From a virus (Duplodnaviria; Caudoviricetes), in the IMG/VR virus record IMGVR_UViG_3300029305_005280: DNA of 64,000 nucleotides, one strand, 5' to 3'. The stretch's first letter is position 1; each line of letters starts with the position of its first letter. The position numbers and the translations under genes are program-made. The notes beneath the pieces were generated by a model. The model made no database searches. It was not told where the DNA came from and saw only the letters and a list, made by a program, of their open reading frames with translations. Of this stretch, positions 4,017 through 62,203 are shown in pieces.

Positions 4017-4322
4017 ATGAGTAGAAAATTAAATGTTATCACTTGTCCTAAATGTGGCAGAGAATACATGCCCGCGGAAATTTTCATACCAAAAAATCTT
4101 TTAGGAGCTCCTTCAGTTATTAAAAGAAATGCTGATGGAAAAATTGAAGATTTTATTGGAACAGATATGGACCTAAATGAAAGATATTGTTGTGATTCAT
4201 GTAACACAGTATTTGGAGTTGTTGCTGATATTTCTTTCAGAAGTAATGTTGATGCAAGATTCGATATCATGAATGATTATTCTTCAGAAATGGGTCCAAA
4301 ATTTACACTGGTTGAGTACTAA
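4017..4322 (+). CDS. Zn-ribbon protein
   Basis: CPKC and CDSC pairs; GAGG RBS. Confidence 0.65.
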   Translation: MSRKLNVITCPKCGREYMPAEIFIPKNLLGAPSVIKRNADGKIEDFIGTDMDLNERYCCDSCNTVFGVVADISFRSNVDARFDIMNDYSSEMGPKFTLVEY

Positions 4323-5995
4323 TGATAAAAATAAAAGAATTGACACCAAAGAAGATACCTGGACTATCTTCTTTGTTTGTTACTTTTGACTACTGTAAGG
4401 AAATTGTTGCAGTTATTAAAACTTGTACTCCTGCATATTTTGATAAGAAAACTTCGGTGTGGGAGATACCTACAACAAGGCTTGCAAAGTTCATAAATGG
4501 TGTTAATCAATTTGATGATATTGAGTTTTATCCTCAGCACAAGAAACGACTAGAAGATAAAGTATTTAAACTAAGTAATTATAAAACAACACCCTATGAT
4601 TATCAGTATGAGGGCATACAATATGGTTTAAATCATGATAAGTGGTTACTTCTTGATGCACCCGGCCTTGGAAAAACCCTACAGTTAATCTATCTTGCTC
4701 AAGAGTTAAAAAAACGTGATAACATTGAACATTGTTTGATACTATGTGGTATAAACACATTAAAAACAAACTGGAAAAAGGAAATACAAAAACATTCAAA
4801 CTTATCCTGCACGATACTTGGAGAAAGAGTAAACAAGAAAGGTAAAGTTGTTTATGAAGGCGTATCTCAGCGGTTAGCTCAATTAAAACATAAGATAAAA
4901 GAGTTTTTTGTTATTACTAATATAGAAACCTTACGAGATGATGAAATCGTTGCAGCGCTAAAGCAAGGCAAGAATAAATTTGATATGATTGTGGTGGATG
5001 AGATACACACTTGTAAGTCGCATCAATCTCAACAAGGAAAAAATTTACTGAAGTTAAACAACGCAAAATACAAAGTTGGTTTAACAGGAACATTGCTCTT
5101 GAATAATCCACTTGATGCATACATTCCTCTAAAGTGGACTGAAAATGAACGAGCTCCATATACTAATTTCAGATATCAGTATTGTCAGTATGGTGGTCCT
5201 TTTGGTAATGATTTTATCGGGTATAAAAACATTGATGTTTTAAAAGAGCAGATAAATACTTGCTCACTGCGCAGAACGAAAGATTTGCTTGATTTGCCAC
5301 CAAAAACAATCATTGATGAATATCTTGATATGTCCGATAGACAAGCACAATTTTATCAAAATATTGTTGATGGTGTTCTTGATGAAGTGGATAAAGTTCA
5401 TATTTCAACAGCAAATCTACTCGCAATGGTGGGACGATTAAGACAGGCAACTGCTTGTCCATCAATATTAACAACAGAAAATATTCCGTCTGCAAAGATG
5501 GATAGATGCTGTGAATTGATTGAAGAGATAACTGGAAATGGAAACAAAGTTGTTGTTTTTTCTACATTTAAGCAAACATTGAATGAGCTAGAACAAAGGT
5601 TACAGCAATATAATCCTTTGCTTTGTCATGGCGATGTCCCCGATGATGTAATATCTAAAAACATTGATACTTTTCAATCATCAGATTTTAACAAAGTTAT
5701 GCTTTGTACACATCAAAAGATGGGAACCGGTGTAACATTAACAGCCGCAAGTTATGCTATATTCATTGATTCACCTTGGACCGATGGACAAGCAGAACAA
5801 GCGGAGGATAGAATACATCGTATTGGTAGTAAAGACCCAGTGTTTATCTACTATCTATGGTGCAACGATACCTTTGATTTAAGAACACAAGAGATAGTCA
5901 GAGATAAAGCGTTACTGGGTGATTGGATAATTGACAACAAGTGTTCGCCGGGAATGTCTGAACGGTTACATCAGATGATATTAGATTTAAAATAA
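4322..5995 (+). CDS. SNF2-family (SF2) helicase/ATPase
   Basis: Motifs DAPGLGKT, DEIH, LTGT, GTGVTLT and QAEDRIHRIG. Confidence 0.92.
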   Translation: MIKIKELTPKKIPGLSSLFVTFDYCKEIVAVIKTCTPAYFDKKTSVWEIPTTRLAKFINGVNQFDDIEFYPQHKKRLEDKVFKLSNYKTTPYDYQYEGIQYGLNHDKWLLLDAPGLGKTLQLIYLAQELKKRDNIEHCLILCGINTLKTNWKKEIQKHSNLSCTILGERVNKKGKVVYEGVSQRLAQLKHKIKEFFVITNIETLRDDEIVAALKQGKNKFDMIVVDEIHTCKSHQSQQGKNLLKLNNAKYKVGLTGTLLLNNPLDAYIPLKWTENERAPYTNFRYQYCQYGGPFGNDFIGYKNIDVLKEQINTCSLRRTKDLLDLPPKTIIDEYLDMSDRQAQFYQNIVDGVLDEVDKVHISTANLLAMVGRLRQATACPSILTTENIPSAKMDRCCELIEEITGNGNKVVVFSTFKQTLNELEQRLQQYNPLLCHGDVPDDVISKNIDTFQSSDFNKVMLCTHQKMGTGVTLTAASYAIFIDSPWTDGQAEQAEDRIHRIGSKDPVFIYYLWCNDTFDLRTQEIVRDKALLGDWIIDNKCSPGMSERLHQMILDLK

Positions 5996-6021
5996 GCCGC
6001 AAATGCGACTTATTTTTTTTT
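5991..6021 (+). terminator. Rho-independent terminator
   Basis: Stem aataagccgc/gcgacttatt followed by a T-run. Confidence 0.7.
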
Positions 6022-6036
6022 GTTTTTCTATTGATT

Positions 6037-6068
6037 TAGTTGTATTTTTATATTATATTATTTATAAT
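6037..6068 (+). promoter_or_regulatory. Sigma-A-type phage promoter (TAG-TTGTAT-N17-TATAAT) for the replication operon
   Basis: Matches the 13-copy consensus TAGTTG-N20-TATAAT found across the window. Confidence 0.7.
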
Positions 6069-6144
6069 ATAATTGATAATAATATTACTGTTAATATGTT
6101 ATTATTAAGTTTTACATATAAGGATTTTTAATTTAGGTGATTAG

Positions 6145-6924
6145 TTGATAAAAGAGTATAGAGAGGTGTTTCAACAATCTGCAAGTGTTATACCCGATTA
6201 TAAAAAAATATCTCAAATTGAGTTAGCAGAAAAATATCTTGAAAAAGGGCCCAATTCTGATGCTTATTTGTCGGCATTGATTCTAAGATACTGGAATATT
6301 ATCGAAAAGATGCTATATAAAGATTATGGGTTGTACGATGAAAAAGAAGCATATGATTGGTTTATGGATTCTTTGTTATATGCAATAACATATAAACCGT
6401 GGCAGGACCCAAAAAGTGGAGTCTATCAAGACCCTAAAGCAATTGAAAAAGTTCTGAACACATGTATCAAATGTAGTAGAGCAAACTGGTTTCAAGCGTC
6501 CAATAGACATAAAAGAAAAATAAATCATAATACAAGTAGTTTAGAAGCATTGTCTGAAGAGTTTAAAGATTCCTATCTACCTCGAGAATTAACAGTTGAT
6601 TTAAATCAAGACGGATATACATATTTGATTGAAGAAGCATTCAATAAACAACAATATCTATTTGCATTGATTGTGGACGTAATTGTTCACGATATTTCGT
6701 TAGACAAAGTTACTGATACAAAGAGTTTGATATTAGTAATCAAGAGGTCAATTAGAACATTGCCTGTTGATTATTATAAGATTTTTGCAAAAAATTATGG
6801 ATTCGACCCACAGCAAGTTGAAAAATCATTTTCGTTCATTTACAATATGAGTGACCAAAAATTAAAACAGTCAATTGAGAATTACATATACAAGTTAAGA
6901 AATATTCTGAAAAGAGAGGATTAG
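6145..6924 (+). CDS. Hypothetical protein, possibly sigma-factor-like
   Basis: The helical segment 'LILRYWNIIEKMLYKDY...EAYDWFMDSLLYAI' loosely resembles sigma region 2; weak support. Confidence 0.35.
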   Translation: MIKEYREVFQQSASVIPDYKKISQIELAEKYLEKGPNSDAYLSALILRYWNIIEKMLYKDYGLYDEKEAYDWFMDSLLYAITYKPWQDPKSGVYQDPKAIEKVLNTCIKCSRANWFQASNRHKRKINHNTSSLEALSEEFKDSYLPRELTVDLNQDGYTYLIEEAFNKQQYLFALIVDVIVHDISLDKVTDTKSLILVIKRSIRTLPVDYYKIFAKNYGFDPQQVEKSFSFIYNMSDQKLKQSIENYIYKLRNILKRED

Positions 6925-6928
6925 TTAT

Positions 6929-7642
6929 TTGTTAGTTGACCTTCTCAGTATGGATAATTATGTTAACTTTAATATAAAACTTGCTGAAATTCTTGGGCTG
7001 CACCCTGCAATCTATATTAGTGAATTGCTTAACATAAATGAAAAAGCTGTTCGTAAAGATAAGGTAGCCGATAATTGTTTTAAAGTAGTTAGAAGTTATA
7101 TCACAAAGAGAACAACATTATCCATCGAAGAACAAAAAGAAATTGATGCTTTACTTGTTAGTATTGGTGTACTAAAAGTAAACCCAGAAAGTAGCGATGC
7201 ATTGACATTGGACCTGACAATATTAACATCACTTGTATCTGCGGAACCGACAGATATTGAAAAACTTAAAAAGATTGTAAATACAACTAAGCCAAAGAAG
7301 AGAACAAAGGCTCAAGTAATAATTGAACAACTAAAAACACTTGTTGTAGTTGAGAATGAAGAGTTGCGTCAAGCATATTATGATTGGATTGATGCTGTTA
7401 ACGCAAAACAAGGATGGATGTCAGCAAAGTCTGTTACGGTAGGGCAAAAAACTATTGATGCATATTGCAATCATAATCTCGATTTAGCTTTGCAACTTCT
7501 TGAGATAGCATCAATGGGTGGATATAGAGATATACAGTGGGCCATAAATACATACGAAAAAGATTATAAATTAAATTATAGAATACCCGCTGCACCTGTT
7601 AAACAAAGAGTCACTACGGCATTAAGTGAGGAGGTATTCTAA
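6929..7642 (+). CDS. Putative replication initiator (wHTH + DnaD-like)
   Basis: The N-terminus 'NIKLAEILGLHPAIYISELL...ITKRTTLSIEEQK' is typical of phage initiators, and the gene sits directly upstream of a DnaC-like loader. Confidence 0.6.
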   Translation: MLVDLLSMDNYVNFNIKLAEILGLHPAIYISELLNINEKAVRKDKVADNCFKVVRSYITKRTTLSIEEQKEIDALLVSIGVLKVNPESSDALTLDLTILTSLVSAEPTDIEKLKKIVNTTKPKKRTKAQVIIEQLKTLVVVENEELRQAYYDWIDAVNAKQGWMSAKSVTVGQKTIDAYCNHNLDLALQLLEIASMGGYRDIQWAINTYEKDYKLNYRIPAAPVKQRVTTALSEEVF

Positions 7643-8330
7643 TTTGATATTGAGTAATGATTGTTTTACAAAAGATATTTGTGCAAAGTTTAAAAAAGGT
7701 CATTGTGTCGATGGTGAGTTTTGCATCAAATTATTCAAACTCAATGCTTTATATGACCAGGCATTGATTAGTGACAAGCAACGTCAAAGAATCAACTTGA
7801 GGATTGACGCAGATGGTACGGATAGGAATGAATTTCAAAGATTACAAAATATTGAAAACGATATTTTGAATTTTGTGAATGAAGGATGTAACCTATATCT
7901 CTATTCTACAACATGTGGTAATGGAAAATCGTCTTGGGCCCTCAGGCTAATTCAATCATATTTCAATAAAATATGGCCTTCCGCAACAATTGAATGTAAA
8001 GCATTGTTTGTAAATGTTCCAAAATTTTTTCTTGCACTTAAAGATAATATTAGTGTAAAAAGTGATTATATACAACATATAAAAGATAATGTTGCAGAGT
8101 GTGATATTGTTGTCTGGGACGATATCGGAACTAAGGTTGGAACTGAATTTGAAGTTGAAAATTTGTTGAATATCATAAATAATAGAATTGATAACGGTAA
8201 ATCAAATATTTACACATCAAATATAACTCCTGTTCAATTGCAGGAAAGAGTGGGAGAGAGACTGTATTCCCGTATTATAAATCTTTCTACAAATATTGAA
8301 CTTAGAGGAATGGATAAAAGAGGTTTATAA
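7626..8330 (+). CDS. DnaC/IstB-like helicase loader ATPase
   Basis: Walker A STTCGNGKS, Walker B VVWDDIG, and YTSN and RLYSRI motifs. Confidence 0.85.
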   Translation: MRRYSNLILSNDCFTKDICAKFKKGHCVDGEFCIKLFKLNALYDQALISDKQRQRINLRIDADGTDRNEFQRLQNIENDILNFVNEGCNLYLYSTTCGNGKSSWALRLIQSYFNKIWPSATIECKALFVNVPKFFLALKDNISVKSDYIQHIKDNVAECDIVVWDDIGTKVGTEFEVENLLNIINNRIDNGKSNIYTSNITPVQLQERVGERLYSRIINLSTNIELRGMDKRGL

Positions 8331-10607: not shown

Positions 10608-11477
10608 ATGGCACAAGTTTCGTTTGATGCTGTTCCTGCTGAAAATCAGGGCGGCGGTAATTTTAATTCTGTTGAGTTTTTTACTCTAAGAAATGATGGA
10701 GATGAAGCGCTTGTAAGAATTCTTCATGACAGTACAGACTCATTCAATATCTTTACTGTCCATGATAATCTTTCCGTAAATGGCAAACGCAGAAAGGTAA
10801 ATTGTTTAAGAAGTCCAAAGGACCCTGTTGAAATGTGTCCGCTTTGTGCAAGTGGTAATAATATTGTAAATAGAATTTATATCAATATGCTTGTATATGG
10901 AAAAGATGCAAATGGTCAGATGACTATCACACCTGTGGTTTGGGAGCGTAGTTTTGCTTATGCATCAAGACTTAAAGTACTTATTGATGAATATGGTCCT
11001 CTTTCACAGTCAATTTTTAAGATTAAGAGAAGTGGCGCTGCAGGAAGTATGGAAACAAAATATGATATTCTATACTGTAACCCCAAAATTTATCCTGATA
11101 ATCTGTATCCAATTGCAAATACAGAAAAGTTTGAAGGATATTCCGCACTTGGCAGCGTGATTATGAATAAAACTGCTGCTGATATGAATGTGTTCTTAAA
11201 TACTGGTGCATTCCCTGCAGCACCTCAGAATGAAAATGCAAATGCAGCACCTCAGCAGATGAGTTATCAGCCAAAAGTTGAAACAAACGCACCTGTTTAT
11301 TCGGAGGTTCCGCCTGCAATTCCTGTAAATCCTACACCAGCAACAGGTGGTTATGTTCCTCAGGGAACTGGTACACCGAGCGCAGCACCACAGAGATGGA
11401 ACACAACCGGAGCACCTGCTCCTGTGGTTGAGAGTCCTTCAACCACAGGAAATGGGCCTGGACCTAGATATTATTGA
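10608..11477 (+). CDS. gp32-like single-stranded DNA-binding protein
   Basis: 'FFTLRNDGDEALVRIL...H...C...CPLC...FKIKRSG...TKY' pattern with a Pro-rich tail; lies between primase and polymerase. Confidence 0.75.
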   Translation: MAQVSFDAVPAENQGGGNFNSVEFFTLRNDGDEALVRILHDSTDSFNIFTVHDNLSVNGKRRKVNCLRSPKDPVEMCPLCASGNNIVNRIYINMLVYGKDANGQMTITPVVWERSFAYASRLKVLIDEYGPLSQSIFKIKRSGAAGSMETKYDILYCNPKIYPDNLYPIANTEKFEGYSALGSVIMNKTAADMNVFLNTGAFPAAPQNENANAAPQQMSYQPKVETNAPVYSEVPPAIPVNPTPATGGYVPQGTGTPSAAPQRWNTTGAPAPVVESPSTTGNGPGPRYY

Positions 11478-13954
11478 TGGCAGGGTCTTTATGGGGCGAA
11501 GAGTTTGTTATTCCTAAAACTCCTCCAAAGAAAGTTATAAACAAGGTTAATAACCCCAAAGATGCAACTAAAGTTGTAACAAAAGCATTGAAATCTAATA
11601 GCCTCCCACTTGAGTTTAGGTTGGAGGCTATTAGGACTAATGTACTTAAGATACTTGGAAGATATGCAGACCGTACTCAGGTAATCAGGACAAGAGAAGA
11701 GTTAACTGCATATATTGATGCTGCAATTCAAAATGGCGTTATAGCTGTCGACACGGAGACAAATAATAGTCTTGACCCTATAACTTGTAAGTTGATGGGC
11801 CCGTGTATTTATACCCCAGGTCAAAAGAATGCTTACATACCACTAAATCACATACATCCTGTTACTCGTGTTAGGCTTGAAAATCAGCTTACTGAACAGG
11901 ATATCATTGAAGAATTTAGTAGGTTGACTGATATCAAGATTATCATGCACAATGGTAAGTTCGATTATCAGGTTATAAAATGTACTTGTGGTTTAGCATT
12001 GAAATGTTACTGGGATACAATGATAGCTGTTCGTATTCTCGACGAGAATGAAAAACGGGCAGGATTGAAGGAACAATATATAGATAAGATTGATTCTTCA
12101 ATTGAAAAGTACTCAATTGAGCACTTGTTTAAAGATGTTGAATATGCAGTTGTTGACCCTGAAATATTTGCTTTGTATGCTGCTACTGATGCTTTCATGA
12201 CCTATGAATTATACAAATGGCAAGAAGCACAGTTTAATAGAGCGGGGCATGAAAGAATAAAAGAATTATTCTTTGGTATTGAGATGCCTGTTATGGAAGT
12301 TGCAGCAGAAATGGAGCTAACAGGAGTTTGCATCGATAAAGAGTATGCAAGTAGATTAAGTAAAAAATATCATAAATTTATTGATGATGTTGATATTAGA
12401 ATTGCTGAACAACTTGAACAGTATCGCGATGTGATTTCTGAATGGAGAAAAACACCGGAAGCAAACTTTAAAGCACAGAAGGAAAATAAAAAGGGCGAAT
12501 TAACTTATGCAAAATCAAAAAGTGAACAGTTGAAGGACCCACCTGAGTTAACAAGTCCGACTCAGTTTGCTATACTATTATATGATGTTCTAGGAACAAA
12601 AGTTGTTGATAAGAAAAAGCCCAGAGGCACTGGTGAAGACATTCTTGTTCATATTGATAATCCATTATGTAAATTAGTATTAGAAAAAAGAGGACTTGAA
12701 AAATTAGTTGGTACATATATTGATAAGATACCAGGTTGTGTAAATGATGCAGATGGACGATTACATGCACATTTTAATCAGCTTGGTACGGATACGGGTC
12801 GATTTAGTTCTTCGGACCCTAACTTACAAAACATTCCCTCAAAGAATAAAGAAATTCGTTTGATGTTTGTTCCGTCACCCGGTTATGTGATGGTAGGCGG
12901 TGACTTTAGTCAACAGGAGCCCCGACTTTTGAGCAACTATGCAATGGATGAAAACATGATGAATGCATACCGTCAAGGAAAAGATTTGTATGCAACTATT
13001 GCAACTCAGATTCATAATAATACATACTGGGATAATATGGAGCATTTTGAAGACGGAACTCCTAACCCTGCTGGTAAGAAGCGTAGAAGTGGAGTTAAGA
13101 GTTTGATGCTGGGCATTATGTACGGTATGGGCTCTGCATCTTTAGCAGAAGCTATCGGAGGCACTATCAAAGATGCTCAGAAAATCATTGATGATTTCTA
13201 TGCAGGTTTTCCAAAAGTAAAGAAATGGATTGATGAGACTGACAGTAATGCCAAAAAGTATGGCTATGTTGAAGACTTCTGGGGAAGACGCAGAAGGTTA
13301 CCTGATATTCAACTTCCTAAATACAAGATTGTAGAAAAGAGTGCTTCAAAGAATTCAGTGGATATAAATCCTCTTCTTGGTGCAAAAGGAATTGTTAAAA
13401 AGACTGTTAATCCTTTGATTGCTCAGTATCAAAAACAACTTGAAGAAGCAAGAGGATGGCAGCAAGTAAGCAAGATTAAATCAGATGCATTACTTAATGG
13501 CATTGAAATACATGATAATGGTGGATTTATTGCATACGCAGAAAGACAATGTGTAAATGCTCGTGTTCAAGGTGGGGCTGCAACAATGTCAAAACTTGCA
13601 ATGAGGAAAGTATATGACAATCCTGAGTTGCGTAGACTTGGATTCCGGATGCTATTACAGGTGCACGATGAACTTATTGGAGAGTGCCCCATTGAAAATG
13701 CTGATGAGGTAGCTGCTTTGCTTTCTGACATCATGAAGCATTCAGCAGAACCCGTTGTTACAATTCCATTCAAATGTGACACTGAAGTCAGTGCTTGCTG
13801 GTATTATGATGATTATAGTAATACACTTAAAGCAGAATTCAATAAGCTCCTTGACAAAGGAATGTTGAAAAATGATGCATACAATACTATTCTAAACGAG
13901 CACACTGAGTGTACCGAAGAACAAATCAAAGATTTCTTATCAGATATATTGTAA
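11474..13954 (+). CDS. polA: Family A DNA polymerase with 3'-5' exonuclease and no 5' nuclease domain
   Basis: Exonuclease motifs DTET, HNGKFD and YAATD; polymerase motifs TGRFSSSDPNLQNIP, DFSQQEPR (A), RRSGVKSLMLGIMYG (B) and QVHDE (C). Confidence 0.95.
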   Translation: MMAGSLWGEEFVIPKTPPKKVINKVNNPKDATKVVTKALKSNSLPLEFRLEAIRTNVLKILGRYADRTQVIRTREELTAYIDAAIQNGVIAVDTETNNSLDPITCKLMGPCIYTPGQKNAYIPLNHIHPVTRVRLENQLTEQDIIEEFSRLTDIKIIMHNGKFDYQVIKCTCGLALKCYWDTMIAVRILDENEKRAGLKEQYIDKIDSSIEKYSIEHLFKDVEYAVVDPEIFALYAATDAFMTYELYKWQEAQFNRAGHERIKELFFGIEMPVMEVAAEMELTGVCIDKEYASRLSKKYHKFIDDVDIRIAEQLEQYRDVISEWRKTPEANFKAQKENKKGELTYAKSKSEQLKDPPELTSPTQFAILLYDVLGTKVVDKKKPRGTGEDILVHIDNPLCKLVLEKRGLEKLVGTYIDKIPGCVNDADGRLHAHFNQLGTDTGRFSSSDPNLQNIPSKNKEIRLMFVPSPGYVMVGGDFSQQEPRLLSNYAMDENMMNAYRQGKDLYATIATQIHNNTYWDNMEHFEDGTPNPAGKKRRSGVKSLMLGIMYGMGSASLAEAIGGTIKDAQKIIDDFYAGFPKVKKWIDETDSNAKKYGYVEDFWGRRRRLPDIQLPKYKIVEKSASKNSVDINPLLGAKGIVKKTVNPLIAQYQKQLEEARGWQQVSKIKSDALLNGIEIHDNGGFIAYAERQCVNARVQGGAATMSKLAMRKVYDNPELRRLGFRMLLQVHDELIGECPIENADEVAALLSDIMKHSAEPVVTIPFKCDTEVSACWYYDDYSNTLKAEFNKLLDKGMLKNDAYNTILNEHTECTEEQIKDFLSDIL

Positions 13955-13958
13955 GATA

Positions 13959-14007
13959 TACTTGAGTTCAAATACCTTAATCCTCAAGTAAAATAAAAAA
14001 TTAGGAG
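13959..14007 (+). promoter_or_regulatory. preQ1-I-like riboswitch candidate overlapping the yhhQ Shine-Dalgarno
   Basis: 8-bp stem tacttgag/ctcaagta with loop ttcaaataccttaatc, then an A-rich tail aaataaaaaa and ttaggag (SD). It lies directly upstream of a queuosine-precursor transporter. Confidence 0.65.
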
Positions 14008-14017
14008 TTTTAAAAAA

Positions 14018-14725
14018 ATGTTAACAAAAGTAAAAAATGAATTAAAGGAATACAGCAGACTTCTACATACAATTCCTTCATGGGTATTAACTTTGTTTGT
14101 CCTTAGTGTAGTTGCAATGAATCTTTTTGCCAATAAATCAATCAATCTTCCGGTCAGCTGGTTAGCTCTTGATTGTGGAATGATTTTTGCTTGGGCTCCA
14201 TTTCTTTGTATGGATATTGTTGTAAAACATTTCGGACCAAAAGCAGCTGTTAGATTAACAATTATTGCAACACTTGTCAATGTTTTGGTTTCAGTTATGT
14301 TTTTCTTTGGTGCACTTATTCCAGGCACATGGGGAGAATCATTCAATGGTGACATGAATATGATAAACACAGCTCTCAACAACACATTGAAGGGAAATTG
14401 GTATATTGTATTTGGTAGTACACTTGCATTCATTGTTGCAGGAATTGTTAATAGTATTACAAATCATGCAACAGGTAAGTTATGTAAAAATGACAATTTT
14501 CGTACATTTGCTCTAAGAACATATGTGTCAACGTTCATTGGTCAATTTGTAGATAACATGGTTTTCTCACTTGTAGTAAGTCAAGTATTGTTCGGGTGGA
14601 CCCTTTTACAGTGTGTCACTTGTTCTCTTACTGGAGCTCTGTGTGAACTGCTTTGTGAAACAGTATTCAGTCCTGTCGGTTGGAGAATTGTTAAGAAATG
14701 GAAAAAAGATAACCTTACAGTGTAA
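14018..14725 (+). CDS. yhhQ: VUT/YhhQ-family queuosine precursor transporter
   Basis: Multi-TM protein with 'NLFANK', 'PFLCMDIVVKHFGPK', 'GSTLAF' and 'LRTYVSTFIGQFVDNMVF' signatures. Confidence 0.88.
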   Translation: MLTKVKNELKEYSRLLHTIPSWVLTLFVLSVVAMNLFANKSINLPVSWLALDCGMIFAWAPFLCMDIVVKHFGPKAAVRLTIIATLVNVLVSVMFFFGALIPGTWGESFNGDMNMINTALNNTLKGNWYIVFGSTLAFIVAGIVNSITNHATGKLCKNDNFRTFALRTYVSTFIGQFVDNMVFSLVVSQVLFGWTLLQCVTCSLTGALCELLCETVFSPVGWRIVKKWKKDNLTV

Positions 14726-14738
14726 GGATAGAATATGT

Positions 14739-14774
14739 GGGATAGTTGAATTACTTTCAGCTATCCCTTATAAT
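14739..14774 (+). promoter_or_regulatory. Promoter (TAG-TTGAAT-N17-TATAAT) superimposed on an inverted repeat (terminator- or operator-like)
   Basis: The hairpin gggatagttgaa/ttcagctatccc contains the -35 box. Confidence 0.65.
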
Positions 14775-14808
14775 ATAACTATAAACAATGAAACGGAGTT
14801 AAAAATAA

Positions 14809-15756
14809 ATGAGTGTTGTGTATTTCTTTAGCGGGGCTTACAAGCAGCCTTTAAAAAGAGAACTAAACATTGACCAGTTGTTTTCTGTTTATCATGAAAA
14901 AACATTGATTAAGAAAACAATTCAATATAAGAAAGAACATCCTGAATATACAGCAAAGATTATGGTCGATAGTGGTGCGTTCTCTTTATATCAGAAATTT
15001 AAAAAGAATGGTGAAATTCTTACTGATGAAGAATTAACTGCTTATACTGACGATTACATAGAGTTTTTGAATGAAGTAGGAGATGACTTATATTCATTTG
15101 TTGGAGTGGATACTGTTCCTAATCCCGATGACGTTGACCAAAGTTTTGCACAGAAGACTTGGGACAATTACCTTTATATGTATGAAAGACTAAGACCAGA
15201 GATTCGAGATAAACTAATGCCTGTTTTCCACTTTGGAGAAGATTTTAAGTGGTTAAGAAATATGTTGGAACACAAACACTCTACAGGTAAAGGTCTTGAG
15301 TGGGTTGGACTTGCTATCTCACTTGAAGGTAATCAGAAAGTAAGAATTAGTTGGGCAAATGAATGTCGTCGTATTATCAATGAAAGTAGCAACCCTAATG
15401 TTAAGACACATGCTTTTGGTGTAGGTGTTAAATCAGTTCTTGACCACATTGAAGTTACTTCGACAGATGCAACTTCTTGGTTAAAGCGTGCTGCTTACGG
15501 TATGGTAAGTATTCATGACAAAACAATTTACATAAGTGAACTTCAACAGCAAAAATTTGATGGAAGACATCTCACTGAAAAATCTGTGGCAATGCAAGGT
15601 GATGTTGAAAAGATTGTAAATGACCGAGGATTTACGCTTGAAGAGTTAGCAACTGACCCTTATGCAAGAGCAAAATTTAATATACTTGATACAATTGATT
15701 GGGTGAATAACTTAAATCAGAATAAGTTTTTAACCGCAAAGAAGGAACTATGGTAA
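14809..15756 (+). CDS. dpdA: TGT-fold base-exchange enzyme, DpdA-like 7-deazaguanine DNA transglycosylase
   Basis: VDSGAF, VDTVP, PVFH, GLA, HAFGV and STDATSW map onto TGT/DpdA catalytic motifs. It is adjacent to yhhQ, and no CxCxxC Zn site is seen. Confidence 0.75.
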   Translation: MSVVYFFSGAYKQPLKRELNIDQLFSVYHEKTLIKKTIQYKKEHPEYTAKIMVDSGAFSLYQKFKKNGEILTDEELTAYTDDYIEFLNEVGDDLYSFVGVDTVPNPDDVDQSFAQKTWDNYLYMYERLRPEIRDKLMPVFHFGEDFKWLRNMLEHKHSTGKGLEWVGLAISLEGNQKVRISWANECRRIINESSNPNVKTHAFGVGVKSVLDHIEVTSTDATSWLKRAAYGMVSIHDKTIYISELQQQKFDGRHLTEKSVAMQGDVEKIVNDRGFTLEELATDPYARAKFNILDTIDWVNNLNQNKFLTAKKELW

Positions 15757-15757
15757 T

Positions 15758-16468
15758 ATGGAAAGAGCATTGATAACAGGAACAAGTTGTGGTGTAGGTA
15801 GGGCTGCAGCAGTTAAGTTTCTAGATGAAGGATATGAGGTTTATGGACTTGATATCAAAGAACCTACTATTGTACATAAGAATTATCATCATGTTATTTG
15901 TGATGTAAGTAAGAAAGAACAACTTCCTTATATCAAAGACCTTGAATACATTGTTAACAATGCAGGCATTGTAACTCCACAGGTAGATGCAATTGATGTT
16001 AATCTTTATGGTTACATCAATATTCTTGAAGAATATGGTGACTGTCCTTCTCTTAAAAGTATTGTCCAAGTAGGCAGCACTGCTTCATACAAAGGTTACG
16101 ATAATATAAGGTATTGTGCCTCTCAGGGCGGAAGAGACGCACTAACAAAGTGGGCTGCAAACAATTTTGGTAACGATAAGAGACATGTTATTGTTAATTC
16201 TCTTAATCTTGATGGTATCGTAGCAGCTGACCCTGAAAAAGGAATTCAAGGTACATCGCTTGAACCTGAGTTATATGCACAGCCCCATTTGATGGAAACT
16301 ATTAAGAACCTCAGCGTGTTAAAGAAATTAGCAACTGTCGAGGAAATTGCGGAATGGATTTATTTCTTACTTGTTAAGAATACAGTGATGACTGGTCAAA
16401 TTCTGTCAATTGATGGAGAACTTATTGGTGCTTATAGATTTATTCAGTATCCGGGGTGGAACGATTAA
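15758..16468 (+). CDS. Short-chain dehydrogenase/reductase with atypical YxxxQ motif
   Basis: TGTSCGVG (TGxxxGxG), NNAG, catalytic S, YCASQ in place of YxxxK, and C-terminal TGQILSIDG. Confidence 0.85.
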   Translation: MERALITGTSCGVGRAAAVKFLDEGYEVYGLDIKEPTIVHKNYHHVICDVSKKEQLPYIKDLEYIVNNAGIVTPQVDAIDVNLYGYINILEEYGDCPSLKSIVQVGSTASYKGYDNIRYCASQGGRDALTKWAANNFGNDKRHVIVNSLNLDGIVAADPEKGIQGTSLEPELYAQPHLMETIKNLSVLKKLATVEEIAEWIYFLLVKNTVMTGQILSIDGELIGAYRFIQYPGWND

Positions 16469-17352
16469 TGAATAAGATTTGTGCATTGATTCCTTGCTTA
16501 ATGCTGGATAATAACAGAGAGATAAATAAAAAATCAATAACCTCAAATCAAGAGCATCTAAAACTAGATGCTTATGTAATATATGACCAATGTTTCACAG
16601 AAAATGATTTCATTCCCGATTGTGAATATATTGGTCACGCTGATAAGCGTATGGGATGGGTTGAACCACGAAATGCACTTTTAAGATGGTTTTACAACTC
16701 AGACTATGACTATGCTTTTTGGATTGATGCAAATTCAACAGTGTCAAAACCTACACTAAATGATTTAACTACAATCATCGATAATATTAGAAATGGTACA
16801 TTAGATGATTGTGATTCTATATTTGCTACTTTAGGGATGTGGGTATCTCAAGAAAGGATTCAGTGTAAATCAGCTGAAGACTTCTATGATAATGTAAGAT
16901 TACTTCCATCAAGAATGGATAGAAGTTATAATTGGATGCACGGCATGTTTCATAAGAATTTTAAAAAATACTATAATCAAGAGTTCTATATTGATGAAAG
17001 ATGTGATACACGTAAAGGAACTCCTGATGATGTTTATTTTGCAAGATTGCTGAGAAAGTATACTAACTGCTGGGTAGCCCCCACTGTTGTAGTAAATAAG
17101 CCCTCATCTAAGATGTCTTGTACGTGGGCAAATGAAAAAGGAACATACGATTATCCTCCTGTTCTATTTGATATTGTGGATGATTATATCCTTGAAGAGT
17201 CAGAAAAGAATAGTTATCATATATGCAATAAAAATGTGCAGTTAAAGGAAATTGTAATTCCAAGAAATGATTATCTGCGTGAACATATTAAACATTATGT
17301 ACCACGAGGTAAAAAGAAAGAAACTTTAAATTCAAGAATGACATTGTTTTAA
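16468..17352 (+). CDS. GT-A fold glycosyltransferase (GT2/TAGT-like)
   Basis: 'GWVEPRNALL...DYDYAFWIDAN' (variant DxD region) and 'PDDVYFARLL' (ED-type acceptor base motif). Confidence 0.6.
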   Translation: MNKICALIPCLMLDNNREINKKSITSNQEHLKLDAYVIYDQCFTENDFIPDCEYIGHADKRMGWVEPRNALLRWFYNSDYDYAFWIDANSTVSKPTLNDLTTIIDNIRNGTLDDCDSIFATLGMWVSQERIQCKSAEDFYDNVRLLPSRMDRSYNWMHGMFHKNFKKYYNQEFYIDERCDTRKGTPDDVYFARLLRKYTNCWVAPTVVVNKPSSKMSCTWANEKGTYDYPPVLFDIVDDYILEESEKNSYHICNKNVQLKEIVIPRNDYLREHIKHYVPRGKKKETLNSRMTLF

Positions 17353-17365
17353 AGGAAGTGAACTG

Positions 17366-19090
17366 ATGAACCTTTTAGTACTATCAGGTGGTAGTGGAAA
17401 TGATTCATTGATTAGAGGACTTAAAAAGTTATATCCCTCAATCAACGTAAAGGTACTTGTTAATGCATATGATGCAGGTAAATCAACAGGTATTTGTAGA
17501 AAAGTGACTGATACATTAGGAGTGTCAGATATTAGAAAAAATCATATTAGAATGTATGAATCAATGACAAAGTATCCTAACAAATGTATTCTTGAATTCT
17601 ATAATGATAGATATGATTTTACAAAAGGGCACGAATGTGAAGAAATTCTACAAAAGTTATCAGAATGGAATCTGAGTCAATTTGGTGATTTTGTTCAAGC
17701 ATTCTTTTCCCGAACTAAATCAAAAGAGTATACATATAATGATTTTAATGTGTCCAATATTGTTTATGCAGAGATGTATGCTGCATTTGGATATAAGAAA
17801 ACAAATTCTATTTTTTGTGGTTTACTGGGCATTGACGATTTCTTACTATTAAATTCATTTGACAACGTTTACATTCAAGCAAGAACAAAATCCAATCATC
17901 TAATCGAAGATGAAGGGGATATTGTGGAATATTGTAATCCCTCTGACCCTATTGTTGGTATTGAGTATATCGGTGATTATAACAATGAGTTGAATCAAGA
18001 AGCAGTTAACGCAATCCAGTGGGCTGATTATATTGTTATTTCAACTGGAACATTCTGGAGCTCAATCTATCCTACATTACAGTATGGTGATTTGTATAAG
18101 TATATAAATGCATCTACTGCAAAGAAAGTGTGGGCAATAAACAACGAATGTGACAAAGATTCTTATGGTGTTGGAAGTAATCAATTTATCGAGTTTTTTG
18201 AAGAACTCGGGTTGAACTTAAATGATTTTCTTATTCTTGAGAATACTGATGCAGTACAAATTTTGAAAGAAGAAAATCCCACAAAGAACATTGTTTTCAA
18301 ATCAATGGATTCTTACAACGGGAAGCATAACCCCGATAAGTATGCTGCAGAAATTTTAAGATTGTATTATGGTATTGATTCTGCTGATTCATATGATACA
18401 ATATTGTTTGATTTTGATGATACACTGTGGGCAAGAGATGCCACTACCATAAATCCTCAGTCTTTATACTATTCTATTGATAATCTTAAACTGATGAATC
18501 AAAATTTAAGCAACAAGAGTGCAATTATTTCAGGTAACTCTTACAAAAGTATTCATAATAAGTTAGTCACAGTTTATGGTGCTCACTTTGATTCATTTGA
18601 TGTGGATGTGTGGGCTGATGCAAATACTAATTGCTATCGTAAAGGTGAGTTAGTTGATTCAATTTCTGATTTTATCATGGACAATGAAACTACAAAACTT
18701 ATTGTTGATTATCTATCAAGAAGATACAATGTTATTCCTGATGGAATTAAATTTGAAAATGATACTACTTATTTAAAGATAAAGCCTCTTGATGGTTTTA
18801 CAAGGAGAATTCTTGCCGATTACCTAAATAACTATGTATTTAAAAACATTGGATGCAGCCAATGCAAGGCAGTCACAACAGGTAATACGACATTAGATAT
18901 CATACATATAAACAACACTAAGGCAAAACTTCTGGATGTTTTAGATTGTAAGAATAAGAAAGTTCTTTATATTGGAGACGAAGTTAACTTTGGTAATGAT
19001 GCAGACATTGCAAGTAAATGTACTGCATATGTAAACACAAGTGGTGTTGAAGAAACACATTGTATATTGGAGTTGTTAAGTAAAAAATGA
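17366..19090 (+). CDS. CofD/YvcK(GlmR)-like transferase fused to a HAD-IIB (PMM-like) phosphatase/mutase
   Basis: N-terminal SGGSG, NAYDAGKSTG, SDIRKN and AIQWADYIVISTGTFWSSIYP; C-terminal DFDDTL, SGN, K and IGDEVNFGND. Confidence 0.8.
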   Translation: MNLLVLSGGSGNDSLIRGLKKLYPSINVKVLVNAYDAGKSTGICRKVTDTLGVSDIRKNHIRMYESMTKYPNKCILEFYNDRYDFTKGHECEEILQKLSEWNLSQFGDFVQAFFSRTKSKEYTYNDFNVSNIVYAEMYAAFGYKKTNSIFCGLLGIDDFLLLNSFDNVYIQARTKSNHLIEDEGDIVEYCNPSDPIVGIEYIGDYNNELNQEAVNAIQWADYIVISTGTFWSSIYPTLQYGDLYKYINASTAKKVWAINNECDKDSYGVGSNQFIEFFEELGLNLNDFLILENTDAVQILKEENPTKNIVFKSMDSYNGKHNPDKYAAEILRLYYGIDSADSYDTILFDFDDTLWARDATTINPQSLYYSIDNLKLMNQNLSNKSAIISGNSYKSIHNKLVTVYGAHFDSFDVDVWADANTNCYRKGELVDSISDFIMDNETTKLIVDYLSRRYNVIPDGIKFENDTTYLKIKPLDGFTRRILADYLNNYVFKNIGCSQCKAVTTGNTTLDIIHINNTKAKLLDVLDCKNKKVLYIGDEVNFGNDADIASKCTAYVNTSGVEETHCILELLSKK

Positions 19091-19791
19091 TTTATGGATT
19101 AATCATAAGCGCGGGAAATCAAAAAAGATTTGCTAGTGAGAAACCAAAGGCGTTGCTTGACACACCCATTGGAGAAACGTTGCTTGATTTGAATATGGCA
19201 AATATGCATGAAGTGTGTGACCTTGTTTATGTTGTTTGTTCAACTCAGAATCAATCATGGTTTGACACTTCTGATAAGATTATTATTGATTCAGGTAAAG
19301 GTTGTGGAGACGCTGTAATGAAAGCATTACAGCAACTATCCTTGAAAGCTGATGATAAGGTCTTCATTCAATGGGGCGATTCATATCATAAGGTAAGCTT
19401 GTACAGATTACTTCAAGATAGATATATAGGTAAATTTTTAATTCCTTGTCAAAAAGAAGATAATCCATATGTTTGGATTATTCCTGAACGTAGGGGCGTG
19501 AAAGTATATTTTTCAAAATATGGCGAAACTTGTACTTCGGGATATCATGACCTAAGTTTGTTCTATGGTAATGCTTTAGAGTTGCTCTCATATCTTGAAG
19601 AATTTCGTGACCAAATTGAAAAAGATGGCAACTATATACATAAGCACGGTAATGAAATGCAATTCCTTGATGTGTTTAATGAAACAGTAATGCCCGCAGC
19701 TATTATAGAGGTATCAGATTATCAAGGTTTTTCATTCAACACAATAGATGAATTTCAAAAAATTATAGATAAGTTTGATTTTTCAAACTAA
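19087..19791 (+). CDS. Sugar-phosphate nucleotidyltransferase (GlmU-N/NTP_transferase-like)
   Basis: ISAGNQKRF...PKALL, GKGCGDAV and QWGD. Confidence 0.8.
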   Translation: MIYGLIISAGNQKRFASEKPKALLDTPIGETLLDLNMANMHEVCDLVYVVCSTQNQSWFDTSDKIIIDSGKGCGDAVMKALQQLSLKADDKVFIQWGDSYHKVSLYRLLQDRYIGKFLIPCQKEDNPYVWIIPERRGVKVYFSKYGETCTSGYHDLSLFYGNALELLSYLEEFRDQIEKDGNYIHKHGNEMQFLDVFNETVMPAAIIEVSDYQGFSFNTIDEFQKIIDKFDFSN

Positions 19792-19834: not shown

Positions 19835-20959
19835 ATGATTATTAGAACAGAATTGCTACAGGATTCCTGTGCAAAAATTCTTAGCGCAGTTGACTCGAAT
19901 GTTCTTTCTGCAGTAACTGAAACTCTTGAGATTAGTGCTTCCGACGGTGTATTTACAATGGCAGTAACTAACAGAGAATATTTTGTGGAAATTAAGATGG
20001 ACATCGAAGTTGCTGAAACATTCCACGCAACCGTTAATGCAAATCTTTTCCTAAAACTTATTGCAAAGGTAACCTCTGAAACAATTGAATTGAATACAAA
20101 TGGTAATTCTTTACATATCAAGTGTAATGGTGATTATAAGATTCCTCTTATCTATGATGGAGAAGCACTTATGGAATTACCTCGCATTAGCATTGAAGAA
20201 GTAAACGAAACTATTGACGTCGATAGTTCTATTCTTCGTTCTCTTGTGAATTACAATAGCAAGGAATTAGGTAAAGGGACAATTTCTAAACCAATTCAAC
20301 GTCTCTATTATGTTGATAAAGAGGGAGCTATTACTTTTACAACTGGTGCGTGTGTTAATAAGTTTGATATTCCGATGACTTCAAAACTTCTTCTTAATGA
20401 TAAACTTGTTAAGTTGTTTAAGTTGTTTAAGGATACAAAAGTTAAGATGACTGTTGGTCATAATAAGATTAACAATGATACTTTCGCAACTGTTGTTTCA
20501 TTTGAAGCACCTGGTGTGTATATTACAGCAGCCCTTAGTTGTGACGATAGTATGTTTGTATCATATCCTGTTGACCCTGTTAGAGGTCGTGCAAATTCAG
20601 TATATCCTTACGCTGTTGCAGTTAACAAAGATACCCTACTTCAGACCATTGATAGATTGATGCTATTCAATCAGACTTCAAGTAAAGCCGATTTCTCACA
20701 GGCAATTGTAAAACTTGAATTTGGAAGTGATGCAGTTGTTGTGTCAGACCGTATGGGAATCAACAAAGAAGAAATCCCATATAGCAAATCAATTGAAGGA
20801 ATTGATACATATAGCGCACTTATTGACAGTGGCGACCTAACCAAAACACTTGCAAGTTGCGTAAATCAGTTTGTAAATATTGCTTTTGGCAATAGTCAAG
20901 CATTTGTACTATCAGAGGGAATGATTAAGTGGGTAATTCCCGAATGCACTGAGGCCTAA
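19835..20959 (+). CDS. dnaN: DNA polymerase III beta-type sliding clamp
   Basis: 374 aa with the three-domain beta-clamp pattern ('FTMAVTNREYFV', 'LFLKLIAKV', 'YPVDP...VNKDTLLQTIDRL'); clamp-loader genes are present. Confidence 0.8.
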   Translation: MIIRTELLQDSCAKILSAVDSNVLSAVTETLEISASDGVFTMAVTNREYFVEIKMDIEVAETFHATVNANLFLKLIAKVTSETIELNTNGNSLHIKCNGDYKIPLIYDGEALMELPRISIEEVNETIDVDSSILRSLVNYNSKELGKGTISKPIQRLYYVDKEGAITFTTGACVNKFDIPMTSKLLLNDKLVKLFKLFKDTKVKMTVGHNKINNDTFATVVSFEAPGVYITAALSCDDSMFVSYPVDPVRGRANSVYPYAVAVNKDTLLQTIDRLMLFNQTSSKADFSQAIVKLEFGSDAVVVSDRMGINKEEIPYSKSIEGIDTYSALIDSGDLTKTLASCVNQFVNIAFGNSQAFVLSEGMIKWVIPECTEA

Positions 20960-21430
20960 GTGGCTCAAAATAGAGGAAAGGTGTTTGAGGAGAAAGTAAA
21001 ACAGGACCTCCTCAAACTGCCTGATATTTGTGTTGAACGACTTCCAGACCAGATGTCAGGATTTAAAGGTTCAAAAAATGTATGTGATTTTGAAGCTTAT
21101 TGGTACCCACATCTATATTATCTTGAATGTAAAACAACACACGAAAATACATTTGCTCTGTCAGCTTTAACTCAATATGATAAGCTACTTGAGAGAAAAG
21201 GTAAAAAAGGTGTTAGGTCTGGAGTTATGCTATGGTTCATAAAACATGATAAAGTTTGTTATGTTCCAATAGCAACATTTGAAAAGTTAAAAAATGATGG
21301 TAAGAAATCTGTAAACATTAAGATGTTGGGAACGGATGAATACCGAATAATTGAGATACCCGCTGTAAAGAAAAGAGTTTTTCTTGACTGCGATTTTAAT
21401 ATATTAAAACAATTGCAGGAGGGTGATTGA
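20960..21430 (+). CDS. recU: RecU-like Holliday junction resolvase
   Basis: NRGKVFE, CDF, LECKTT and Q motifs. Confidence 0.8.
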   Translation: MAQNRGKVFEEKVKQDLLKLPDICVERLPDQMSGFKGSKNVCDFEAYWYPHLYYLECKTTHENTFALSALTQYDKLLERKGKKGVRSGVMLWFIKHDKVCYVPIATFEKLKNDGKKSVNIKMLGTDEYRIIEIPAVKKRVFLDCDFNILKQLQEGD

Positions 21431-21984
21431 TGTACATAAATTCAGAATTTGATTCTTGGGTTAAGCAGAATGTAAATAATATGGATTATGCTGTAATTGA
21501 ACCTCCTTGTTTAAATAGGGGTCAGTATTCTTACATATGGTCAAACATAGGGCTTATTGATATTTTTCAGACATTTGATATTAAGTATCTATTTATGTGG
21601 GTAGATGTTAATACGCTACCAAGGCTGTTTACCGTTTATCAAGAATCGGATTATGAGTTCAAAGCATTACTTCCGTGGGTAAAGATTACAAAAACTGATA
21701 ATCTTTTTTATACTTTAACCAACACACTTAAAAGTAATGTTGAATATCTTGCAGTATTTCAGAAACCGAATGTTCCAAAGTTAAAATTTAATGATAAGAA
21801 CATTATTGTTGATGAACAAGATTCATACACTCATAAACCAAAAAAGTGGGAAGAATACTTACAGAAGCAATTATCTTATAGCGGTTTAGAAGGAATCTAT
21901 ATCCATTCAAATGGTGACTATGAGAGGTTGATTTCAATTAACCAGGACGATGAACCTAAAGTTCATAAAACCGAATTATTTTAG
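21427..21984 (+). CDS. MT-A70-family methyltransferase-like protein with degenerate catalytic motif (EPPC)
   Basis: VIEPPC...YLFMWV...LPWVK...NVEYLAVF...THKP follows the MT-A70 motif order. Confidence 0.6.
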   Translation: MMYINSEFDSWVKQNVNNMDYAVIEPPCLNRGQYSYIWSNIGLIDIFQTFDIKYLFMWVDVNTLPRLFTVYQESDYEFKALLPWVKITKTDNLFYTLTNTLKSNVEYLAVFQKPNVPKLKFNDKNIIVDEQDSYTHKPKKWEEYLQKQLSYSGLEGIYIHSNGDYERLISINQDDEPKVHKTELF

Positions 21985-33819: not shown

Positions 33820-34015
33820 GGACAAATTGTATTATATATTAGAGGAACTCAATAGTCATAAAAGAACACCTAATCAGGTTATGCAGAGTTGTATTGAAGA
33901 TAGGTTAGAGAGTTCCTTGAACTCTTACAAGCACTCTTTGGAAAATAGTTATTCTTACTTAAGCACCAAAGATGAAATGAACGTGCTTAAAAAATTAAAC
34001 AGAGGTTTAAAATGA
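33809..34015 (+). CDS. Hypothetical protein
   Basis: Coupled ORF within the operon. Confidence 0.5.
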   Translation: MLFRDKLYYILEELNSHKRTPNQVMQSCIEDRLESSLNSYKHSLENSYSYLSTKDEMNVLKKLNRGLK

Positions 34016-62196: not shown

Positions 62197-62203
62197 TAAC
62201 AGA

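Follow-up and report, generated by a model that had tools for sequence, protein, structure and literature searches.

A phage cassette for putative queuosine-precursor import, DpdA-type base exchange and glycosyl transfer: a candidate route to glycosylated 7-deazaguanine in DNA

Overview of the proposed pathway

We identified a cassette of six genes, all on the + strand between polA and dnaN of a Caudoviricetes phage, that may serve to salvage a 7-deazaguanine, insert it into phage DNA and glycosylate it there. The cassette spans positions 13,959 to 19,791 of the 64,000-nucleotide stretch that was analysed (the window; IMG/VR virus record IMGVR_UViG_3300029305_005280). It encodes an importer of the Vut_1/YhhQ family, a DpdA-type member of the tRNA-guanine transglycosylase (TGT) superfamily, an atypical short-chain dehydrogenase/reductase (SDR), a glycosyltransferase of GT-A fold, a fusion of a YvcK-like domain to a sugar-phosphate mutase-like domain, and a sugar-1-phosphate nucleotidyltransferase. 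The genes lie where a reading of the sequence alone (the original prediction) had placed them and are tightly packed: a 1-nt gap separates the DpdA and SDR genes, the SDR and glycosyltransferase genes overlap by 1 nt (at ATG 16468), and a 13-nt gap and a 4-nt overlap follow. Protein folds, catalytic motifs, gene linkage and missing synthesis genes were observed, and we give the pathway that they point to about an even chance of being correct. The original prediction stood in outline (i.e., salvage, the genomic slot of DpdA, linkage of the GT-A gene and supply of a nucleoside diphosphate (NDP)-sugar), but the roles that it gave to a 'CofD' domain and to the SDR did not.

In the proposed pathway, the Vut_1/YhhQ protein would import a queuosine-type base (preQ0, preQ1 or queuine), the phage itself making no preQ0. 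The DpdA-type transglycosylase would then swap guanine in phage DNA for the imported base. The SDR would convert the base before or after its insertion, and may create or expose an acceptor group. The GT-A enzyme would move a sugar from an NDP-sugar to the modified base in DNA. The donor could be made on site, with the phosphomannomutase (PMM)-like half of the fusion protein forming a sugar-1-phosphate and the nucleotidyltransferase activating it; for the YvcK-like half, binding or handling of a uridine diphosphate (UDP)-sugar is probable. Tails of the form [KR]xxL[FW] at their C termini may tether DpdA, the GT-A enzyme and a methyltransferase encoded nearby to the phage beta-clamp, in which case modification would follow the replication fork.

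The DpdA-type transglycosylase

The closest family match of the transglycosylase is phrog_887, annotated as 'queuine tRNA-ribosyltransferase' (Table 1), and it shares 33.7% identity with DpdA of Streptococcus phage Dp-1, the DNA of which contains dPreQ1 (PMC6884629). The motifs by which this enzyme was originally recognised (DSGAF, PVFH, HAFG and STDATSW) were all found. No Pfam family matched the protein, and this includes the TGT model PF01702. PDB sequence and profile searches recovered neither TGT nor DpdA, and the fold search alone succeeded. The AlphaFold model (predicted local distance difference test score, pLDDT, 86.5) matches ArcTGT (1iq8, Z 20.1), bacterial TGT (3unt, 19.6) and DpdA (7UI4, 18.5), with unrelated TIM barrels scoring 14.8 or less. 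Foldseek matched the model to TGT at 1e-6 to 1e-5.

Residues D54 (of DSGA), D101, G204 and D220 (of TDATSW) are invariant in 11 family members, including those of Dp-1 and Bacillus phage Flasso, and H201 is present in at least 90%. The active site of Salmonella DpdA comprises Asp95, Asp130, Asp256 and His181/Gly182 (PMC10164549). Mapped by motif and order, D54, D101, H201/G204 and D220 fit the acid/base, base-recognition and nucleophile residues of that enzyme, and the active site of the phage protein looks intact at the level of sequence. The protein consists of the catalytic barrel only, with no Zn or tRNA-binding module; it has a single Cys and therefore no TGT-type zinc site. The DpdA proteins of some relatives (L005:7152-8357, L007:5512-6732 and L013) are longer, at 401-406 amino acids, and have an insertion of ~86 residues before the C-terminal helix.

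Probable salvage of the base

No genes for biosynthesis of preQ0 were identified, as originally noted for folE, queD, queE and queC. The FolE, QueC, QueD, QueE and QueF proteins of Dp-1 and Flasso gave no significant tblastn match in the 64 kb, the top match (E 0.027) falling on an NrdG-like radical-SAM gene. Also lacking, in five IMG/VR relatives (92-100% complete, 118-205 kb), are the QueC and QueD (PTPS) families and any thymidylate-synthase-like gene. DpdA is therefore the sole visible candidate for making an unusual base. The importer matches the Vut_1/YhhQ family, as proposed; the 'queuosine precursor transporter' model TIGR00697 also matches (1.3e-10), under the model cut-off. The importer gene is a constant feature, located beside that of DpdA in every related locus with enough flanking sequence to show it. 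Thus, the evidence favours a base that is salvaged rather than synthesised.

The DpdA-type gene occupies what we take to be the ancestral slot of deazaguanine genes, between polA and dnaN. In Dp-1 and Flasso this slot contains the genes of FolE, QueC, QueD and QueE together with that of DpdA (and QueF in Flasso, a transporter in Dp-1). The slot of the window contains the importer, SDR and GT-A genes where those phages have the genes for preQ synthesis.

Other genes adjoin the importer gene in some relatives. These encode a protein similar to nucleoside 2-deoxyribosyltransferase (L025:4012-4500) and GDSL/SGNH hydrolases (L021:6823-7401 and L024:5669-6322), and may help in salvaging the base from nucleosides or conjugates. 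Small extra open reading frames (ORFs) occur between the importer and DpdA genes of the relatives that have the longer DpdA (for a protein of 88 amino acids, an RHH protein and a DUF7487 protein).

A preQ1-like riboswitch had been proposed upstream of the importer gene, and this we could not substantiate. No Rfam preQ1 family was found at its gathering score. Searches relaxed to E<=10 gave none either, whether over 1.3 kb or with the 76-nt leader by itself, and the leaders of relatives gave no match. In the leader, a 6-bp hairpin whose 16-nt loop ends in C precedes an A-rich tail, after which comes the Shine-Dalgarno (SD) sequence AGGAG. The leader is placed and built in the same way in 10 relatives, with nine distinct, perfectly complementary stems, loops of 10-21 nt and tails that are 62-89% A. 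The folding energy of the window leader is ordinary (z = -0.58), and that of the other copies ranges from -0.16 to -3.5, mostly not significant. Pairing of the loop with the SD sequence is possible in every copy, but shuffled loops do as well in a fraction of 0.10-0.64. From a set of leaders that aligned poorly (P1 was misplaced in the MAFFT alignment), RNAalifold predicted a 4-bp pairing with the SD sequence that includes 2 compensatory pairs. Similar to the preQ1-I riboswitch (RF00522), the leader has a short hairpin, a loop ending in C and an A-rich tail that runs into the SD sequence of a queuosine-precursor transporter gene. It differs in that it has no Rfam match, the leader loops are longer and the pseudoknot pairing is not above that of shuffles. 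We consider it a plausible regulatory leader and do not treat it as a riboswitch.

Conservation of the cassette in unrelated phages

Related loci were located by an alignment-based scan of viral contigs with the glycosyltransferase. Genes for DpdA (PHROG 887, 1e-32 to 1e-34), the SDR, the GT-A enzyme and Vut_1 occur together, in varying order, on at least four unrelated phage backbones. These are large phages with polA and dnaN, a contig with ParB, TerL and ClpP (L019), a phage with an SPP1-type portal (L021) and a phage with a D5-type primase (L024). A second ParB/TerL/ClpP contig (L020) ends before the position of DpdA. Conservation of the neighbourhood had been named as a check on the prediction, and the GT-A gene is indeed tightly linked to that of DpdA in unrelated phages.

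The gene content is nested. Only the importer, DpdA and the SDR are present in L026; the GT-A gene is added in nine distinct loci; and the mutase fusion and nucleotidyltransferase are added to these in the window, L003, L005, L007/L013 and L014. This nested distribution reads like a pathway. The L026 locus (4270-7838) has the order polA, Vut_1, DpdA, SDR and dnaN, with no GT-A gene within 12.7 kb. It suggests a second, non-glycosylated deazaguanine derivative that depends on the SDR.

The GT-A glycosyltransferase

We identified no family-level match for the 298-residue ORF at 16456-17352, and its identification as a GT-A glycosyltransferase, already present in the original prediction, is borne out by the structural model and structure searches. 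The closest folds are those of TarS (Z 14.7, root mean square deviation 2.9, 189 residues aligned) and TarP (Z 14.5). Foldseek matches in the PDB are ~1e-8, and every top match in the PDB, BFVD and ESM Atlas is a GT-A/GT2 protein. Although the longest ORF opens at GTG 16456, the true start is probably ATG 16468, because homologues have 294-297 residues. D83, D85, D91 and N93 are invariant; D83-x-D85 immediately precedes beta4 and D91-x-N93 closely follows it, and either is a candidate for the DxD motif that binds metal and nucleotide after beta4 in GT-A enzymes. The model comprises one GT-A domain and a tail, and has no C-terminal polymer-binding or trimerisation domain.

The family was seen only in phages and viral metagenome contigs, and no relative was found in 185,579 bacterial and archaeal species genomes. 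GenBank phages gave no match to the GT-A or SDR proteins (the only cassette genes tested there), and a megablast search of the region found nothing.

Clamp-like tails

Four of the 67 proteins of the window end in L[FW]. These are DpdA (KKELW), the GT-A enzyme (RMTLF), an MT-A70-like methyltransferase encoded downstream of dnaN (KTELF) and the 108-residue product of an ORF at 34012-34338 (YKDLF). In all loci that carry dnaN, DpdA, the GT-A enzyme and the methyltransferase, where present, end in [KR]xxL[FW], and the SDR, fusion protein and nucleotidyltransferase never do. The tails of DpdA and the GT-A enzyme are absent from the four loci without a dnaN match. The DpdA proteins of Dp-1 and Flasso end in RRLF and GKLF, respectively, and the tail of the methyltransferase is conserved in relatives. 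Judged from these sequences, the tails appear to part DNA-acting enzymes from those acting on soluble metabolites, and they are the best argument that the GT-A enzyme acts on DNA. Tails of this kind, which resemble clamp-binding motifs, could be a predictor of DNA-acting phage enzymes. The MT-A70-like enzyme is a neighbouring DNA-modifying enzyme, outside the glycosylation pathway.

The SDR

The third gene of the cassette encodes an SDR, as first described, with matches to adh_short and adh_short_C2. The protein keeps TGxxxGxG, NNAG, Ser107 and Tyr119. The position of the catalytic Lys is occupied by Gln123 (YxxSQGxR), which is invariant in 13 members and aligns to the catalytic Lys of PDB 5gwt. 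The motif Y119-x-x-S-Q123-G-x-R126 was seen in the window, L003, L005, L014, L017 and L019-L026. There is an Asp after beta2, which we take as a hint of NAD as the cofactor. An ESM Atlas feature search returned generic SDR clusters only, and in a large homologue search the best 120 matches are all from the same phage family.

The SDR had been counted among the enzymes that build the sugar. However, it stays with DpdA and the importer where the glycosyltransferase is absent (L026). We therefore see it as acting on the base rather than on a sugar nucleotide, and perhaps making the acceptor; a part in the tailoring of sugar nucleotides is improbable.

A putative sugar-donor pair

The original prediction described the fifth gene as a CofD/YvcK-HAD fusion. 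Its YvcK-like and HAD halves were confirmed, but a function of the CofD type was not. In PDB profile searches the N-terminal half matches the YvcK/UPF0052 protein 2ppv at 1.3e-14 and true CofD (3c3d) at 0.029, and the CofD equivalog model TIGR01819 gives 16.6 bits against a cut-off of 257; the Pfam CofD model, which does match, is drawn at superfamily level. The C-terminal half is of the HAD-IIB alpha-phosphoglucomutase/phosphomannomutase type (4bnd, the Lactococcus alpha-phosphoglucomutase, at 1.5e-5 and 7myv, a phosphomannomutase, at 7e-3). The four HAD motifs, I-IV, are invariant or close to it (D349-x-D351-x-T353, S389-G-N391, K519 and G537-D-E...G543-N-D545). The fusion family has at least 240 clusters at 50% identity (E<=1e-30); with this protein as the single query, a scan of viral contigs gave no match. 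We also considered phospho-alcohol transfer of the CofC/CofD type, which would give a phosphodiester decoration similar to that of teichoic acid, and rejected it because the domain is YvcK-like and its partner is of the hexose-phosphate mutase type.

The sixth gene encodes a nucleotidyltransferase similar to GlmU, in agreement with the initial assignment. Besides NTP_transf_3, it has profile matches to ST0452 (7e-8), IspD (5e-7) and GlmU (~1e-6), and A9, G10, R14, P20 and K21 of the signature (A/G)G-x-x-x-R...PK are invariant. The nucleotidyltransferase always directly follows the fusion, by adjacency or as part of the same protein (L002, L010, L011 and L012).

The pair also occurs outside the cassette. 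In jumbo phage LR756500 (L002) and contig L011 it is found near genes similar to those of T4 beta-glucosyltransferase and thymidylate synthase. In Ralstonia jumbo phage RsoM2USA (L001, 29-5141) the fusion gene is beside genes of these same two kinds, all annotated as hypothetical. These three loci probably encode a pathway for a glycosylated pyrimidine with its own sugar supply. A search for TGT with PF01702, in which the controls were recovered, found none in RsoM2USA and LR756500, a weak negative given that this model also misses the DpdA of the window. A guanylate-kinase-like gene is also present in the LR756500 and L011 neighbourhoods.

In a bacterial metagenome-assembled genome (L010:380-6255) a GT2 domain is attached to the fusion, and a large GT2 enzyme follows. 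In a Mollicute-like genome that reads TGA as Trp (L012:8001-12060) the fusion is joined to the nucleotidyltransferase and again followed by a large GT2 enzyme. These protein fusions link the activities of the mutase fusion, the nucleotidyltransferase and GT2. The mutase fusion and nucleotidyltransferase are a separable, optional pair, probably for NDP-sugar supply, shared by DNA-glucosylation and cellular GT2 contexts. Of the sugar-building set that was first proposed, the mutase half and nucleotidyltransferase are thus retained as the sugar supply; the CofD role was dropped, as was the SDR, which travels with DpdA and the importer.

Assessment of the pathway and its alternatives

Several observations weigh against the proposed pathway. 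A hydroxyl group is missing from preQ0 and preQ1 (queuine has two), so an O-glycoside would require queuine or an alcohol made by the SDR, failing which the linkage would be an unusual, N-glycosidic one. The SDR is without the canonical catalytic Lys, and may be no redox enzyme at all. The choice of DNA over tRNA as the probable substrate of DpdA follows from homology and genomic context, and genes for tRNA-Tyr(GTA), His(GTG) and Asn(GTT) are present in the window. The closest solved folds of the GT-A enzyme are teichoic-acid glycosyltransferases, and the fold is silent on the acceptor. One phage lineage accounts for much of the synteny, and ~4 contexts are independent. Bacterial clamp-binding motifs begin with Q, and the tails described here begin with K or R. 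A complex of DnaN and the GT-A enzyme was predicted with a score of 0.38 (best control 0.15; runs agreeing on at least 47% of contacts; partner pLDDT at least 80), a pass that gives weak support and would be more often wrong than right unless the pairing is likely beforehand. Of 80 solved complexes, 58 passed the same mark, as did 2 of 110 mismatched pairs; passes at 0.60 or less were those of 7 of the 80 solved complexes and of both mismatches.

In its most specific form, our proposal is that part of the guanines would be replaced by a glycosylated 7-deazaguanine derived from gut preQ1 or queuine, through a DpdA and a GT-A enzyme that are tethered to the clamp and with an acceptor made by the SDR (in the L026 variant, the product would be an SDR-made derivative). 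This form falls a little short of an even chance.

Alternatively, the base may be elaborated before its insertion, with the SDR and GT-A enzyme acting on the free base or nucleoside and DpdA inserting the finished base, or the product may be an SDR-modified, non-glycosylated deazaguanine for which the GT-A enzyme is a helper. We consider this fairly unlikely. It would explain why the SDR is without a clamp-like tail and remains with the importer and DpdA where the glycosyltransferase is lacking, and it fits the nucleoside deoxyribosyltransferase-like gene that adjoins the importer gene in L025. In addition, AvpGT, a structural neighbour of the GT-A enzyme, was crystallised with the nucleoside Ara-A, and the bulky base queuine is inserted by eukaryotic TGT (PMC10516641). 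However, the tail of the GT-A enzyme is like those of DpdA and the methyltransferase and is restricted to phages that encode dnaN, as would fit an enzyme acting on DNA. The phage DNA glycosylations known to us also occur on the polymer.

The sugar genes could instead be independent of DpdA. The GT-A enzyme would then decorate a host surface polymer (in the manner of TarP/TarS, for superinfection exclusion) or a virion protein, and DpdA would insert plain preQ0 or preQ1. TarP, TarS and RmlT are the top structural matches of the GT-A enzyme, and a prophage-encoded TarP provides a precedent, but the polymer-binding and trimerisation domains are missing here and the enzyme has a clamp-like tail common to DpdA and the methyltransferase. 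The mutase and nucleotidyltransferase pair serves GT2 enzymes in cellular genomes, but the GT-A family itself is absent from the bacterial and archaeal species genomes searched, and the fusion lies beside T4-type DNA glucosyltransferases in three other phages (with the nucleotidyltransferase in 2 of the 3). Furthermore, the GT-A and SDR genes adjoin those of DpdA and the importer in four unrelated backbones. We regard independence of the two sets of genes as quite unlikely.

Distinctly improbable is a pathway directed at tRNA, in which a queuosine-type base at position 34 of phage or host GUN tRNAs would be glycosylated by the GT-A enzyme as in mammalian galactosyl- and mannosyl-queuosine: the window has three such tRNA genes, ArcTGT and bacterial TGT score as high as DpdA in the fold search and sugars on 7-deazaguanine are so far known to us from tRNA only, but the nearest relatives of the enzyme are phage DpdA proteins (phrog_887, and that of Dp-1 with its dPreQ1-containing DNA), the enzyme is a bare barrel with one Cys, its slot in the replication module is that of Dp-1 and Flasso, the clamp-like tails track dnaN, and in small phage contigs the unit also adjoins packaging or primase genes.

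Genomic context and occurrence

The window represents the region for replication and nucleotide metabolism of a large phage with a low GC content (34%). Its products include a helicase similar to DnaB, a primase-like protein, PolA and DnaN, a clamp loader, RecA, proteins similar to SbcCD, NrdD/NrdG and ligases, as well as 19 tRNAs (including the three named above). The closest relatives of PolA are from a human faecal phage fragment, Clostridium phage phiCTP1, Bacillus phage Flasso and Streptococcus phage Dp-1. Coordinates of the cassette and flanking genes are given in Table 1.

Faeces of animals and gut metagenomes of bovine, sheep and goat origin contain near letter-for-letter copies of the stretch, and parts of it were found in 20 runs from 14 studies. 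The stretch is present in at least 12 studies. The cassette family is common in ruminant gut metagenomes, with hundreds of protein clusters. In one study, two metatranscriptome runs have contigs spanning almost all of the cassette, which is compatible with its expression, DNA carry-over being possible.

Two other features of the window are as follows. A truncated formate/nitrite-transporter-like ORF (189 amino acids) lies between nrdD and nrdG (42320-45638), and a FocA-like gene at this location is unusual for a phage. Genes for a peptide deformylase and for a cysteine protease of the papain family are also present (37323-38081 and 62186-63013).

Table 1. Genes and leader of the polA-dnaN region, with the matches on which each assignment is based.
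Feature	Position in window	Strand	Evidence
polA	11474-13954	+	Pfam DNA_pol_A 1.6e-86
Conserved leader of importer gene	13961-14007	+	Hairpin, A-rich tail, Shine-Dalgarno AGGAG
Vut_1/YhhQ-family membrane importer (queuosine-precursor transporter family)	14018-14725	+	Pfam PF02592 2.9e-21
DpdA-type (TGT-superfamily) guanine transglycosylase	14809-15756	+	phrog_887 2.8e-36; fold match
Atypical classical SDR	15758-16468	+	Pfam adh_short/adh_short_C2
GT-A fold glycosyltransferase	16468-17352	+	Model pLDDT 92; TarS/TarP fold match
YvcK/UPF0052-like + HAD-IIB mutase-type fusion, 574 amino acids	17366-19090	+	Pfam CofD 3.5e-21; PDB profiles
Sugar-1-phosphate nucleotidyltransferase (GlmU/RmlA/IspD-like)	19087-19791	+	Pfam NTP_transf_3 2.5e-6
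Beta sliding clamp DnaN	19835-20959	+	phrog_947 1.5e-14
MT-A70-like methyltransferase	21427-21984	+	Pfam MT-A70 1.1e-4, under family cut-off

Significance and comparison with known systems

If the proposed pathway is correct, glycosylated deazaguanine would be a new class of DNA base and, to our knowledge, the first sugar-bearing base of the purine type in DNA; we know of no phage DNA glycosylation other than those of pyrimidines. At sites that contain G, such a base would presumably block cutting by restriction enzymes, and perhaps by CRISPR nucleases, and it would provide new targets for modification-dependent defence systems. Protection of the phage genome would be tied to the queuosine-precursor pool of the gut. 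A DNA-acting GT-A enzyme and a salvage-dependent DpdA could be new enzymes for DNA labelling. The pair formed by the YvcK/PMM fusion and nucleotidyltransferase appears to be a portable module that supplies the sugar donor in phage DNA glycosylation.

Eight deazaguanine bases have been described in DNA, none with a sugar (PMC10516641), and 'DpdA-only' phages are a known group (PMC6884629). In the searchable literature we found no paper that ties DpdA to a glycosyltransferase or SDR, and none on a glycosylated deazaguanine DNA base. The cassette family appears unstudied, as GenBank phage records lack the GT-A and SDR proteins. The cassette shares with the DpdA systems of Dp-1, 9g, CAjan and other phages (DpdA1 type) the DpdA family, the slot between polA and dnaN (in Dp-1 and Flasso), a modification that is presumably post-replicative and a queuosine-precursor transporter (QueT in Dp-1, Vut_1 in the window). 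Unlike those systems, the window is without FolE, QueD, QueE, QueC or QueF, so that import is the only source of the base, and the cassette adds an SDR, a GT-A enzyme and, in some members, the NDP-sugar pair.

Glycosylated pyrimidines of phages include glucosyl-5-hydroxymethylcytosine of T4 and arabinosyl and other glycosyl forms of 5-hydroxy- and 5-hydroxymethylcytosine (PMC13326640). In these systems, as proposed here, a DNA base receives a sugar from an NDP-sugar, and some of the phages encode a sugar-phosphate phosphatase or mutase and a nucleotidyltransferase. The YvcK/PMM fusion itself flanks T4-like beta-glucosyltransferase genes in RsoM2USA, LR756500 and L011. However, the base of the cassette would be a purine analogue introduced by base exchange, whereas theirs is a pyrimidine made at the nucleotide level. 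The SDR is also part of the core, and the transferase is of GT-A fold rather than T4-type, the T4-type DNA glucosyltransferase being GT-B.

Galactosyl- and mannosyl-queuosine of vertebrate tRNA carry their sugar on the cyclopentenediol of queuosine. They resemble the proposed base in that a sugar is placed on a 7-deazaguanine derivative after insertion by a TGT-family enzyme, but they are found in tRNA and the context of the cassette points to DNA. The two halves of the fusion protein match YvcK/GlmR and the HAD-IIB enzymes (eukaryote-type phosphomannomutase and Lactococcus alpha-phosphoglucomutase), respectively. Unlike either of these, the protein of the window joins both in 574 amino acids, always before a nucleotidyltransferase.

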